64,000 bases of DNA, from positions 32,001-96,000 of IMG/VR virus record IMGVR_UViG_3300035670_000034. One strand, written 5' to 3'. The notes beneath the pieces were generated by a model. That model worked only from the letters and a program-made list of their open reading frames with translations. It ran no database searches and was not told where the DNA came from. The translations under genes and the position numbers were made by a program. Source of the stretch: a virus. Positions 1 to 58,903 of this stretch are shown in pieces (the stretch's first letter is position 1; the number at the start of each line of letters is the position of its first letter).

Positions 1-1089
1 GAGGCCCCCAAAGCACCCGCTCCGAAGGCACCAGAAAAGCCAAAACCGCAAAAGCCTGCATCAGCGCCAACCGACGGGCCGGACAGGGTGACTTCCCAAA
101 CCAAGAAAAAGATAAGAGCATGGGCAGACACAATCGCAGAGGCTGTCAACTCATCGGGCGTTGATGGTGACTTTGCTGATACCGCATACGACGGAGCGGA
201 ACGGGTTTTTTCAATTGCGTTTCCCGATGATTCAACGCCACTAACAAGAGAACTTGTTGACGATGCCCAGGAAGAACTTGACAATGTTATTGCAGAACTC
301 GGCAGCATCGCAAAAGAAAGAAAACTCACGAAACGTGAGAAGTCAACTCTTCAATTCATGTTCCAGGCAAGAAAATTCCTGGACGAACCATTTGGTGACA
401 GAGAAAATACAGAAGCAGAACTAAGGGGCGACGAGGCTGGCGAAGCCCTTGCTAGGCGTGGCAGACAAGTTTCAAGACTTGGACTTGACGATGACGATGA
501 AGAGGTTCTTGGTGGCGCAGACCTAGGAGATATATACGACAACGACGAAAGAAACCCAGGGGATTGGGACGACAATGACGGTGGCGGACTATCCAGCAGT
601 ACTGTAAACAACATTGTTGGTCTGCGTTCATCTACAAGAAAAGCGCGTTCGTTCCAATCAGCAAACCAAAGAAAACGCGAAGGCCGTTCCGGGCTTGCGT
701 CGTCCTCAAAGAGTCCAAGAACAGAAATAACCAAAGAATCAACTTGGTGGAAGAGAGTCGATGAATCTCTTCCAAAAGAAATACGAAGTGCTGACTCAGA
801 AGCAATTAAGCAAGGCTTGACAATACTTCAACAAAAAATATCGAAATATGAAGCAGGCTCGTTTAGGCCAAATTCCAAGAGAACAAATGTCGGTTCAATA
901 AAAATTACTGCCGACGAAGCCGACAAAATCCTTGATGCGGTCATGTCGGTAATCGACAGACAAAAAACTGCCGGAAGGGACGGCGGCGTTGGAAGTAGAG
1001 GAGAAATATTTGCAGAACTACTTGAGGCAGTTGCATCTTCCGCAATGTCAACGTTTGTTGATAAAACATCAAAACCAGCAGATGATTGA
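1..1089 (+). CDS. 3' end (5'-partial) of a large low-complexity virion-associated polyprotein with 3 GLxSS(T/S) linkers
   Basis: Frame 1 is open from base 1 (EAPKAPAPKAPEKPKP...) to TGA at 1089. GLSSST (586), GLRSST (619) and GLASSS (691) match the linker seen in the downstream giant ORFs. Confidence 0.8.
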   Translation, partial: EAPKAPAPKAPEKPKPQKPASAPTDGPDRVTSQTKKKIRAWADTIAEAVNSSGVDGDFADTAYDGAERVFSIAFPDDSTPLTRELVDDAQEELDNVIAELGSIAKERKLTKREKSTLQFMFQARKFLDEPFGDRENTEAELRGDEAGEALARRGRQVSRLGLDDDDEEVLGGADLGDIYDNDERNPGDWDDNDGGGLSSSTVNNIVGLRSSTRKARSFQSANQRKREGRSGLASSSKSPRTEITKESTWWKRVDESLPKEIRSADSEAIKQGLTILQQKISKYEAGSFRPNSKRTNVGSIKITADEADKILDAVMSVIDRQKTAGRDGGVGSRGEIFAELLEAVASSAMSTFVDKTSKPADD

Positions 1090-1226
1090 TGTTCAACTAC
1101 CAGAATTGCAATAATTCACGACAGAAATAATTTGGGTGAAGTATAATTTGTGAAAACGAATCTTTACACAGCGAGTCGACACGGCGCATGCTAATGTCGT
1201 CACGTCGATAACAAGGAGCCGAAACA

Positions 1227-57800: not shown

Positions 57801-58903
57801 TTCGGGGCAATGACACGCTTGGCGATAAAGAAAAAGAAGAGTTAATCACACAAATTCAAAAAGAGATAGACGGGGATATGTTCTTTATTGGTGTGCCCAG
57901 AACAGGACGACACAGCGAAGAAGAAAAGAAATTCCTTCGGGAATTGGGATTACCTGAAGACGCAGTCCCGGACAACGGCATAACTGTGGGCACTTGGAAA
58001 CTTTATGATTCGCTAATTCCGCTTAATCCAAGCGTGTTTGGGTGGCAGCGTCGTGATGGACTCAGGAGTACCACCAACGAGGAGAGACAAAAATTAAAAG
58101 ATGATGTTGTTGAGCATGTTCTTGCTGGAAATACACTCAAGGCAACGGCAAAGAAGTTTAATATCAGCATAGAATCAGTCTCAAGATACCTGAGACAGGC
58201 TGGCGTCCCGAATCTTGGACAACGCCCGATTGGGATTGCGACGACAGACGATTCCTATCGTGAAACTGGCAAAATGGTTCGCGCCGATGCCCCTGATGTC
58301 CTGAAGGCAAAGTTTGATGCCTTGACACAGATGATTGCCGGCGGGACCGACCTGCGTGAGAGTTTGGAATCCATAAACTTTTCTGGCGTTGATATTGATT
58401 CCGTGATTGACTTTATGGATAACTTGCCAGAACTCCCAGAACGTTGGTCTGGTACTAGAGGACCATTTACCGATAACGCTCTTTACCGAGCGATTTCTCT
58501 GATGGCTGCGCTTGGATTCTCAACAAACCTTACATCTGAAACATTGGGGTCAAGCCCCGTAACCGTCACCAAGTACAGGAAGCATTCAGGCTTTGTCCCA
58601 CCAAAGATTCGGGGCGGGAATCCAACCCATAGAGGGCTCAGCAGCACAACTGCCACCTCTCGACAGCGCCGTGAGTTTGCGACATTGCTCAGGTCTGTAC
58701 ACTCGCTGATGGGCGGGCGCCCCGTGTTCTTTGGCAACGAAACTGATGAAGAAATGGCTATTGCTGAGCGTTTGTTCCGTCAGAAAAGAACGGCTGCTAA
58801 GCGTCGTTTGTCGCCTATCATTGATGCTCTGAGGGGTATGGCTCAGAGATACCCAGAACTGAGCAAGGATTTCGCTGACGAACTGAAGGAGATTTCCAGA
58901 TGA
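48836..58903 (+). CDS. Giant polyvalent protein (3355 aa): DGDGDG tag, zincin, VIP2-type ART-like, GNAT, second ART-like, DUF2786-like, second HExxH, two HTHs
   Basis: 10-kb ORF, GTG start after AAGGA. DGDGDGIIQDGTQWE (49001); HEFGH (50603)...YGNSSAIERFAE; TYRAI...TAFS; RKGSGVA...GVIVWPRQGF; GYDAI...ILNN; HEIGH (57470). Eight linkers. Confidence 0.8.
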   Translation: MTQLGPENKDIYEVDVKDGNRLGRRLSRGLRSLSRSVGNTARSGLVVEPFDPNAYDGDGDGIIQDGTQWERPAVLRSQSIPNADLPKTPDAGTETETEKTQKETRKLVDAAERAGTRISPERSRVTTGGLRSTTVTPLLDPEWRRTATPRELAEIIVPDTLDEADALAEQLAVPRSAYETEADYQNALKLLRRTRDAERAASKRRMEALIAIYEKRHPKTTKTGSFERDLRDDPIEWDKNLKKIFGDQNEWGEQLGATNKRSVERAQIEFLVAYRTELERDPVTNKTLLDIINEIENAYRNGVRLTHGAFWRDSTHIPISPVEYVLARLFMEHSNHPQDPLFITGIRDVVTPSGDTDAVIRWATEFLDGYQRFYEARKGSRALSKQQIKNRIEVAMNSGSRGGFFGTLFGRAIPNEQYIQTHQMVESNDPRDLALLRALLQRTLEQNPEFLEAVRKFGHPPLYVPHRAYHFIAPPREFQEKFLLVPESELTPSELRDKLISGKEYEKGLLEAIRAQELGKGDVTFGAGGLLGVRAGLGGQYSFPDGQITLTPMQLRNTILNRPEADENIINMTGTQGAYTLVGEPAILIHEFGHHVDWTLRNTLYGALWERRKRAIRDFANDPNRNTSPDVFKDFVRQQIVDFRDELKGFTGLVDPDNPSKLSGASDRQNIHRSRLKYLGVNVPRQGPDEVPVGSRLFDPSTLTDEELDDQIREIAGQLDEIHGMVDMLTGRQQIRRMKENGTWQRGIHPSEGDVGDYAINSPEPYVTTPYGNSSAIERFAEITAFVLSRNGQKQPVAVNNAAVRLWARILGIDVEPQDVVSQSRRKRLPSGGYSDEMEDITNRILSDIKIVAPDVQRQPDGHRPGLQSSTSSSDFRFDPDERSMLQSRSNIGLDTDQRLYAQDEPIGVMDFMNRPRVYSIGDHHFYDNEVRYGSQMSFAMRKRLGEQAGRRYINRNRPHHGDMVRAISATQFGLFIDDLPTYDTTTSGQMNVLRGLVTGRIAKLRPEERSQIEEALRDATRIHSAIYGATPNKRDTYRAIKTDRKTFLESVAVGDEIPMPITAFSPDKPDNNENVIIRLEKGAKTIDVGNRQVLTQGNFEVVSVDDDGTRVIATLRHKETFDPRHDALRPVDKFSDKPNAMRKMGSPMPRYTRDEQQKMEVDLERRQDKDKVFGLRSTTGMVPEDLSEKEIDDFLDEEVNLFEEKRVPKEVVDKAKKNLRDYLQRSAIRRFVKTKQALIQKYGADKPWERDADAIRKWRAIDRETAARVSTVLRRSLRNAIDNRTRDMMDADTGELFDDAKVGLSRVLDRFNYYINDYEGIDLSAGQIRHLLETGQFVYWRRDDELFPTEKMVINLPINSPEMAELKQVLETTLPALEAMSRAYLLDGSVDVPNANRSIWEDPKIGGKIILNNEELNIVPNGKGVYAIFQPDGSESISLVANASFGVGSQRPNGTTGFTRKIGLDRDGNIVIGHDRFWMGSKDRERKGSGVATLFNQHSFLWWKQHEGTEVVVPNAVSDGVIVWPRQGFRRIGQARRDALEEQEGFFHMVRALVLKSKRQELFDANRPERGGTAEYEAAQLVKYVDDVDSKYGLDNPEFAKRLVNWLALARTANDNQSPETDLINILANIIEPRELNDSQRLSWAELFGQVAKSNSFSMFLNRDESDNDYLPSFVIPDPTDDLDPMEVQRQIERGRLLRQELENSQAPSEVSRDIYFPEDDKEISSNRLLGERQAGRLFAAVNIDEATSSDTRTFSSARAFMYAREGSGFNVPPRLLTRVETEERISRGEIPLYGWIDLNRVGIYTSDRNNMQELYEQRVRNNMVGLAGPSEVMRFTDKPFDHIDDFHDTNNPVTDPAAVRSGMLGYLAPWARVYKGKRNALPEMFWGNSTEISIARDMRDRGDFDGLMALLVNKFGEEVDNSVMGTDVALVETLDGFLPNGNSETAQTGRRVLGALFQIENNRRMAEAGISTAIRQDKIQGLRDGLLAIMATEFDQSLLVLMGYDAIQHKDGEFTILNNMAVELMDEPVSFAQAARMIDDPRFRAIPSDRSRYSTFIETRLVDNPDWFSGDDPRLLADEPISLTKAGLNSSTYIRSVRQDHNINLERGLRSRTRGSIASARERQRRESAREGKSDGWVNPDDASFKQEVVELEGRFNALVAQLEEWDDRNLELDRPDWAGREEIKKQMDEISDQFASLINTSNIVIEKSMEHQALIDALDAIINERDADYLDGRPKVKDISPEMLDKIRALRDKLVQEKQDNPGLLDFTRARVRHKTIKNAMENFDLQYEVRWFNNEPDTVELEDVVKADVSDKAEAFVEHIYRGLFDERYDAWREYMKPTMAFGVPLYDSTWELGHKRVGELFDGVSPDERDAWRAAHKDFLDSEYNAEYEEDIIDSTPVGGSTRPRDVPAPIWRKVRAAMSRARSTPYNGEKEAATNAAIRLLNPHRPDLANEDFVSGIRSHTIVSTPRSVVNFSSKQMRGASPTSPTTAIENHAFSRIIDEVRSQGIEIEEADLLPTGKYGSKLRQIMDDNQSTQSVNWLIRQTEDDPVLSAVVNAAIKQARLTMGITPIEGHRIKKVNGPVDEEIADVLVDDIDLALLRNQGAPTYDQIIQIAAAKYIEHDRLNKAFGSYQDPEGKLIGAGFTRIDKNSTAYLTTMTSAPDVDGKDYVYRDIRGNEVARLKRYDSVKSDNVASRKPKTLSNFATQHSLIKTNDAIFGVMAEAVEFTGDYENASLKKLRATIEELQSIYRNFEFAPTPAGQHLKKLFEANLESEVKTLELLERIGQRYVHLLRERGISDKEIREMLSTVRKQTLKTAVDPVGREDLFLNGSPIPIGSSNDGTVAEQALYGFLNSKLGSAMLPRFADSDAPAGFHEIGHFSFGQAFSRHGEFVANAWPFFVHGDAFWRSFVALQRNQAPTFDKWTISEHLGKALSPEQKAAFKDASRLIGKTLSRDFVAAFERERYISLGDSERQIIASDVIAAVRGNDTLGDKEKEELITQIQKEIDGDMFFIGVPRTGRHSEEEKKFLRELGLPEDAVPDNGITVGTWKLYDSLIPLNPSVFGWQRRDGLRSTTNEERQKLKDDVVEHVLAGNTLKATAKKFNISIESVSRYLRQAGVPNLGQRPIGIATTDDSYRETGKMVRADAPDVLKAKFDALTQMIAGGTDLRESLESINFSGVDIDSVIDFMDNLPELPERWSGTRGPFTDNALYRAISLMAALGFSTNLTSETLGSSPVTVTKYRKHSGFVPPKIRGGNPTHRGLSSTTATSRQRREFATLLRSVHSLMGGRPVFFGNETDEEMAIAERLFRQKRTAAKRRLSPIIDALRGMAQRYPELSKDFADELKEISR

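Follow-up and report, generated by a model that had tools for sequence, protein, structure and literature searches.

Several phages process their head proteins with a prohead protease that cuts at a short motif: L/I-x-E for T4 gp21, S/A/G-x-E for phiKZ gp175 and A-x-E for SPN3US gp245, and multi-site processing of ejection proteins has been shown (PMC10052503). For the giant polyvalent proteins of phages, Iyer et al. (2017) predicted that HExxH/zincin domains process the polypeptide, and no cleavage motif was defined (PMC5512222). Here we discuss a stretch of 64,000 nucleotides (nt) from an uncultured myovirus-like phage, positions 32,001 to 96,000 of the 136,198-bp IMG/VR record IMGVR_UViG_3300035670_000034 (G000:C1:32001-96000 in our survey; below, the window). 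Five of its proteins, among them a 3039-amino-acid (aa) protein that we call giant A and a 2206-aa giant B, are punctuated by a short motif, G-L-x-S-S/T-T. We suggest, with a probability of roughly one half, that the motif is the recognition signal for a phage-encoded endopeptidase at polyprotein junctions, the leading candidate being a zincin-like domain of giant A that acts after loading or ejection. What is new here is the concerted, genome-specific drift of the motif, its placement in linkers and its occurrence in the tape measure protein.

A reading made earlier from the sequence alone (the sequence-only reading) had listed 29 copies of the motif in the five carriers, and all 29 are present (Table 1). 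The strict pattern, [GASR][LI].S[STR]T, is matched by 26 of them; the exceptions are GLASSS (691), GLASMT (23579) and GIRSHT (56219). The proposed test against shuffled sequences gave a clear answer: 0.31 strict copies are expected in the five proteins, and the maximum in any of 2,000 shuffles was 4. For the narrower GL.S[STR]T, 22 copies were observed and 0.05 are expected. The other open reading frames (ORFs) of the window, 7,051 aa in all, have no strict copy, as had been claimed; the borderline GLLSNT of the 688-aa ORF is at nt 13684. When a position-specific scoring matrix (PSSM) built from the sites was run over the whole 136-kb genome, 29 sites scored at least 14.4 and all else 11.9 or less. 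All six Leu codons, all six Ser codons and four Thr codons are in use in the motif. Since codons vary among the copies, selection acts on the peptide, and the same diversity rules out a DNA-level repeat as the origin of the motif. A duplicated linker module is ruled out too, with about 0.5 bit per position outside the six residues. The sequence-only reading knew of no description of such a motif, and in the literature that we searched the motif strings gave only unrelated matches; neither the motif, nor its concerted re-coding, nor its occurrence in a tape measure protein was found described there.

One strict copy lies outside the window in a 437-aa protein (genome positions 516-1829, minus strand) that resembles a tail fibre or head decoration protein. 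This GLLSST at aa 93 may be a chance occurrence, about one such copy being expected in the remaining genome.

In related phages the arrangement is the same, each of them having its own version of the motif. Among 265 capsid relatives in IMG/VR, motif classes were surveyed in 29 genomes. The arrangement with a genome-specific motif is found in 26, with an L/M/F-x-S core in 24 and with ITGxM in two; three genomes have none. The core begins with an aliphatic or aromatic residue and ends with Ser, and the residue between them is free to vary. Its flanks are uniform within a genome and different between genomes, which gives the classes GLxSST, LRSSG, LxSGR, GMRSxR, R[LF]SSG, GFASRG, LGSRS, RGMASR and GLAS. 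De novo motif discovery in eight further head modules, from protease to capsid, returned such a motif in seven (LRSSG, LxSGR, G[ML]RSxR, RLSSG, ITGAM and others); in the eighth, G005, GLxSxR was found in separate analyses. In these modules it is the protease fusion and the giants that carry the copies; portal and capsid have none, and the proteins of about 450 and 690 aa have essentially none. Two complete genomes have 20 class hits where 0.15 are expected (G029) and 17 where 0.17 are expected (G015), three of the latter in a distal 2703-aa gene.

When homologues of the 877-aa carrier are aligned, the columns of the sites are fixed while their sequence depends on the genome, and this also holds in other carriers. 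At site 625, for example, we find RGLRSTT, RGLRSST, RRLRSSG, RRLRSGG, GRLRSGR and MGLRSTS. There are at least eight motif classes within one phage clade, and on the capsid phylogeny classes differ between sisters: the capsids of G000 (GLxSST) and G001 (LRSSG) are 94% identical. The cultured relative, Gordonia phage ChisanaKitsune, has no such motif. The three motif-less genomes (G014, G026 and G032; loci L106, L119, L124 with L021, L069, L077) lack both giant A and giant B; in their head modules G014 and G026 have an unrelated protein of 2,428-2,464 aa instead, and G032 has several of 600-990 aa.

A cleavage consensus specific to the virus is familiar from polyprotein processing by picornavirus 3C, potyvirus NIa and the adenovirus protease, (M/I/L)-x-G-x↓G. 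The system predicted here would likewise have one protease, many junctions in flexible linkers and a consensus that differs by virus, but those are viruses of eukaryotes. We know of no established strategy in tailed double-stranded DNA phages by which some 30 units are expressed as polyproteins.

The motif also occurs in the tape measure protein. This is the 1647-aa ORF behind the sheath, tube and chaperone genes. A sheath homologue (36% identical to ChisanaKitsune gp41) and then two small ORFs come before it, and it is assigned by synteny and length, Pfam giving only two chance-level matches (E 0.004-0.008, below cut-off). In the phage of the window it has GLASST at residue 667. A class-matched site is present in the tape measure proteins of 13 of the 17 genomes, at 0.32-0.51 of the length; shuffling gives P<0.05 for every one of these sites, among them ALRSSG, GGLRSST, GRLSSG, ARFSSG, GGMSSRG, GFASGG and GGITGAMSG. 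These sites are embedded in Gly-rich sequence, and in 10 genomes the genome's own PSSM was the best of 17 at the site. Since the tape measure sites are class-matched, whatever reads the motif is not confined to the prohead and acts also on a protein of the tail lumen. What the carriers have in common is that they are ejected into the host, not that they reside in the prohead. The sequence-only reading had seen the giants as polyproteins packaged into the head and cut at a dedicated site. Its giants do belong to a virion module, the sites do lie in disordered linkers at domain edges and the putative recognition site does co-evolve throughout the genome, as would be expected of a dedicated cleavage site; the restriction to head proteins has to be given up.

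Processing of tail proteins as such has precedents. Tal of Tuc2009 and TP901-1 is self-processed at GG(S/N)SG↓GG, and lambda gpH is converted to H*. They resemble the present case in being tail-lumen or tip proteins, with a small-residue motif in a Gly-rich stretch; unlike here, their sites are not shared with head proteins and form no genome-wide code.

It is only in the infected cell that head cargo and tape measure protein come together. Hence one may think of a host protease that cuts after entry, with motif classes that mirror the hosts, and Staphylococcus phage 80alpha does mimic the site of the host Prp protease. We consider this very unlikely in view of the nearly identical capsids of phages with GLxSST and LRSSG, the number of classes in a single clade and the three relatives that do without the motif.

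The sites lie in linkers, as the sequence-only reading had proposed. In an AlphaFold2 model of the 877-aa protein, built on an alignment of 18 sequences, five of five sites are in or at the edge of segments with a predicted local distance difference test score (pLDDT) below 50 (264-314, 463-484, 534-555 and 623-635); 28% of the residues are that low. The flanks of 27 sites have a hydrophobic fraction of 0.205, compared with a background of 0.272, and none of 20,000 resamples reached this value. If cut after Ser, the carriers would yield fragments of 11 to 989 aa. Some sites are in tandem, 7-35 aa apart.

Ahead of the first site, four carriers have in common a module of about 35 aa (..DPRKRRDVDGDGMIFDGTW..) with a calcium-loop-like core, DxDGDGxIxDG. 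Besides the copy in giant B (Table 1), paralogous modules are found at aa 432-465 of the 1225-aa protein, at nt 22652-22753 in the 877-aa protein and, diverged, at nt about 49001-49075 in the 3355-aa protein. In 35 of 38 cases across relatives the module is upstream of all sites. It is a candidate for a capsid-targeting piece or the end of a propeptide, which fits an order of targeting piece, then cargo. In several respects this is what is seen with T4, phiKZ and SPN3US: a short core of three positions recurs in many virion proteins, some of which have several sites, a targeting piece or propeptide precedes the first site, and the cargo is ejected. The difference is that here polyproteins of 877-3355 aa have sites between every few domains and not just at a propeptide.

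It is conceivable that the motif is not cut at all and serves as a docking or modification signal, be it a phospho-acceptor for the encoded zeta-like kinase, a glycosylation site or a handle for loading or tail passage. It is rich in Ser and Thr and lies in disordered regions, head cargo and tape measure protein share ejection and not location, and the 877-aa protein includes a kinase-like domain. However, the substrates known for zeta-type kinases are nucleotide sugars and not proteins, and the conserved position is not Ser in the ITGxM class. Sites placed exactly between domains, some of them in tandem, look like polyprotein junctions, and the genome-wide concerted change resembles the evolution of protease sites in viral polyproteins. 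We therefore find an uncut signal unlikely.

If the motif is cut, the course of events might be the following. The substrates would be the ejected virion proteins in whose disordered linkers the motif lies, namely the extension of the S78 protein described below, the 3039-, 2206-, 877- and 3355-aa proteins and, with one site, the tape measure protein. The N-terminal piece ending in the DxDGDG module would bring each precursor into the particle before any cutting. The cuts would then turn about five polyproteins into about 30 domain-sized pieces. The enzyme would most likely be the conserved zincin-like HExxHxxQ domain of giant A, working in trans either within the filled particle or once ejected into the next cell, and candidate scissile bonds are the one before the hydrophobic residue (a typical P1' of zincins) and the one after Ser. 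A more far-reaching suggestion can be offered only tentatively, and we would sooner doubt it than rely on it. This might be a phage clade with a polyprotein logic of its own, where some 30 effector and structural units are delivered as a few giant precursors plus the tape measure protein, and a zincin delivered along with them cuts these only once loading or ejection has taken place, the code being rewritten in concert at every junction between close relatives. Such rewriting might leave co-infecting relatives or host defences unable to read the code.

Two enzymes had been named as candidates in the sequence-only reading, the prohead protease and the encoded zincins. The first 171 residues of the 1225-aa protein, upstream of the window, are a prohead protease of the Peptidase_S78 family (residues 21-165 against PF04586, E 5.4e-10, 40.1 bits with a cut-off of 21), and this part matches phrog_80, head maturation protease, at 7.5e-28. 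It might cut the sites inside the prohead in the manner of T4 gp21 and phiKZ gp175. The protease is fused to the first carrier here and to ORFs of up to 4,807 aa with 12-16 sites in relatives, and, with one exception, the main carriers are encoded between the protease and capsid genes. Read in the S78 register, P3 would be L/M/F, P2 any residue and P1 Ser, which we take to resemble (V/L/I)-x-A↓S of herpesvirus assemblin; the variable third position would fit a solvent-facing P2. Processing of ejection proteins by a prohead protease also has its precedent (PMC10052503).

Other observations speak against such a role. Close relatives have re-coded motifs but an S78-type protease that hardly varies, which is unlike T4, phiKZ and SPN3US: six genomes that represent four motif classes have S78 domains 88-94% identical, with no grouping by class, and 10 genomes, one of them of the ITGAM class, show no change in WGHNW and EWSIGY, the surroundings of the catalytic His and Ser. 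The three motif-less relatives keep S78 (79-82% identical) and have neither giant A nor any HExxH. Systems of the T4/phiKZ type have the motif at the capsid maturation site or in the scaffold; here and in eight relatives no strict or near copy is found in the capsid or scaffold-like proteins. Nor are the substrates restricted to the interior of the prohead, because a protein from outside it, the tape measure protein, has a class-matched site, and this argues against an enzyme locked inside the prohead. Since S78 is near-invariant and persists in motif-less relatives, and since the capsid and scaffold-like proteins have no copies, the prohead protease is not the best candidate, and we regard cleavage by it as rather improbable.

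The zincin-like domain fits somewhat better. In giant A of all 24 L/M/F-x-S genomes HExxH is found at an equivalent position (residue ~500-730), in 23 of them with Gln at +7, and in both ITGxM genomes HExGHxAH stands there instead. In 16 aligned homologues of this region, zincin-1, the residues H673, E674, H677 and Q680 are invariant. Homologues of zincin-1 that are at least 43% identical share GLxS.T, and those about 30% identical carry LRSSG. Giant A and the 3355-aa protein together have four HExxH motifs in the context of a hydrophobic helix, those of the latter being at aa 590 (nt 50603) and aa 2879 (nt 57470). An AlphaFold2 model of zincin-1 has a three-stranded sheet followed by the HExxH helix. 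A VIA structure search matched this model weakly to the zincin PPEP-3 (Z 5.3, root-mean-square deviation 4.1, 167 residues aligned); the wide search otherwise gave mostly helical-bundle noise and a weak Certhrax row. From the ESM Atlas came sub-0.9 leads to LPD1 and LPD23, which are leads from a language model.

A number of points weigh against cleavage by this domain. For the zincin fold there was no match in Pfam, among PDB sequences or in a Foldseek search of the PDB, and it is from the conserved HExxH signatures alone that we infer a zincin. In Mantel tests motif distance correlates with zincin-1 distance at r 0.08, compared with 0.35 for the capsid and 0.33 for the 688-aa protein, and neither Mantel nor partial Mantel tests single out zincin-1. 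That zincin and motif occur together is a confounded observation, since giants A and B are absent altogether from the motif-less genomes. A tape measure protein that is cut before assembly would be hard to reconcile with its role as a ruler. Finally, cleavage at the motif is itself something we infer from sequence patterns.

Earlier predictions that polyvalent or ejected proteins are processed defined no sites. In this clade each genome has about 20-30 explicit predicted junctions, near-identical phages provide natural swaps of specificity, and motif-less relatives serve as an internal control. If the sites are cut, they would provide domain boundaries for some 10,000 aa of unannotated phage protein and a set of orthogonal pairs of protease and site. 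They would also speak for a single step of maturation or activation that is common to head cargo and tape measure protein.

Table 1. Features of the window (positions in nt of the window; numbers after site sequences or after 'nt' are nt positions, those after 'aa' residues)
Feature	Position	Strand	Remarks
C-terminal 362 aa of the 1225-aa protein (a partial ORF in the window)	1..1089	+	GLSSST 586, GLRSST 619, GLASSS 691
451-aa protein	1227..2582	+	no motif; kept in all relatives; scaffold-like or capsid-binding tail by appearance
Giant A, 3039 aa	2600..11719	+	strict sites at nt 3428, 6395, 8036, 9557, 10445
HEMVHGRQ, aa 673-680 of giant A (zincin-1)	4616..4639	+	HExxHxxQ signature, candidate zincin active-site helix
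RNase_T / DEDDh exonuclease domain, aa 2371-2561 of giant A	9710..10282	+	sites at aa 2320 and 2616 on either side
HELGH, aa 2854 of giant A	11159..11173	+	second HExxH, in last predicted fragment; in many, not all, relatives
688-aa conserved head-module protein	12835..14901	+	no strict motif; found in motif-less relatives too
Giant B, 2206 aa	14898..21518	+	eight sites: nt 15879, 16206, 17250, 17403, 17982, 18396, 18603, 18708
Shared module of about 35 aa (..GVLDPRKRRDVDGDGMIFDGTW..) of giant B	15657..15761	+	upstream of first site
877-aa protein	21923..24556	+	sites at nt 22754, 23318, 23558, 23579, 23795
Major capsid protein, HK97-fold	24593..26023	+	no motif copy; end of head cargo block
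3355-aa distal giant	48836..58903	+	sites at nt 49220, 51431, 52358, 55100, 55163, 56219, 58058, 58634

Upstream of the window the 1225-aa protein has a further copy, GLASST at aa 483. Giant A also has two sub-threshold sites, GLGSDT (5399) and GVASRT (5453), and the last 932 aa of giant B have no site. The carriers resemble the polyvalent proteins of Iyer et al. in being giant multi-domain proteins of a late or virion neighbourhood, here between portal/protease and capsid, and in their putative HExxH metallopeptidase-like domains, with the ArdC-type signature HELxHWTGH in relatives. Several unrelated domains share one polypeptide: RNase_T, KTSC and HExxH in giant A, and in the 877-aa protein two DUF3721 domains, Sigma70_r4 (nt 23162-23290) and a zeta-toxin-like P-loop kinase (nt 23867-24307). 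They differ from the proteins of Iyer et al. in that the site set is concrete, statistically sharp and co-varies genome-wide; also, most of their domains match no Pfam family, the link to LPD domains being the language-model lead mentioned above.

Several of the domain edges proposed from the sequence were recovered. The DEDDh exonuclease of giant A is bracketed by sites, Sigma70_r4 of the 877-aa protein (414-456) ends just ahead of site 466, and its Zeta_toxin domain (649-795) is preceded by site 625. For the helix-turn-helix (HTH) pair proposed between the last two sites of the 3355-aa protein we find a weak HTH at 3091-3121, between 3075 and 3267. The families assigned with confirmation are RNase_T, KTSC, DUF3721, Sigma70_r4, Zeta_toxin and the weak HTH. 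Domains like ADP-ribosyltransferases (ART) and GNAT, also proposed, were not confirmed: these families gave no Pfam match up to E = 5 and no PDB sequence match, and the ART-like segment 866-1175 of the 3355-aa protein matched neither Pfam nor PDB sequences. No homologue of the 3355-aa protein was found in five near-complete relatives, and a cluster look-up of giant A homologues returned no names. Outside the window, a 517-aa protein with HELMH has no family match.

Giants A and B share a paralogous module of 89 aa, 48% identical, with a KTSC-like domain, at aa 1183-1271 of giant A (6146-6412) and aa 359-442 of giant B (15972-16223). Both copies end at a motif site.

The motif-bearing genes fill the head module between the HK97-type (S78) prohead protease and the major capsid protein, the 3355-aa carrier being distal. 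The order is portal, S78 fusion, 451-aa protein, 3039-aa protein, two small ORFs, 688-aa protein, 2206-aa protein, a small ORF, 877-aa protein and capsid, and it is kept in eight relatives. Terminase, portal, sheath and capsid genes were recognised by comparison with ChisanaKitsune, whose capsid is 44-46% identical. The C-terminal tail of the capsid maturation protease of ChisanaKitsune has its counterpart in the 451-aa protein, at residues 341-411 (59% over 71 aa). Protease and capsid-binding or scaffold tail thus appear to be split over two genes, the domain being in the 1225-aa gene and the tail in the 451-aa gene. An ELASRT that follows the S78 domain was considered as a self-cleavage site and rejected, its Ser not being conserved in 27 genomes. 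In seven relatives (G010, G012, G013, G015, G017, G024 and G029; loci L103-L122) S78 is the N-terminus of ORFs of 3,967-4,807 aa with 12-16 sites, several of which hold the ArdC-type signature HELxHWTGH.

Two stretches of the capsid protein, ALRSKM at the N-terminus and F[LIV]xS[AP]EF, were rejected as motif sites since they do not track the class of the genome. The second (window about 25100-25130) is conserved in the capsid proteins of 12 relatives; it has an L/I/V-x-S core and lies near the expected boundary of delta domain and mature protein. Directly 3' of the capsid gene there is a DUF6321 protein (window 26807-27808), and the stretch directly downstream of the capsid gene also encodes a 133-aa endonuclease (window 27805-28206; phrog_452, 5e-37).

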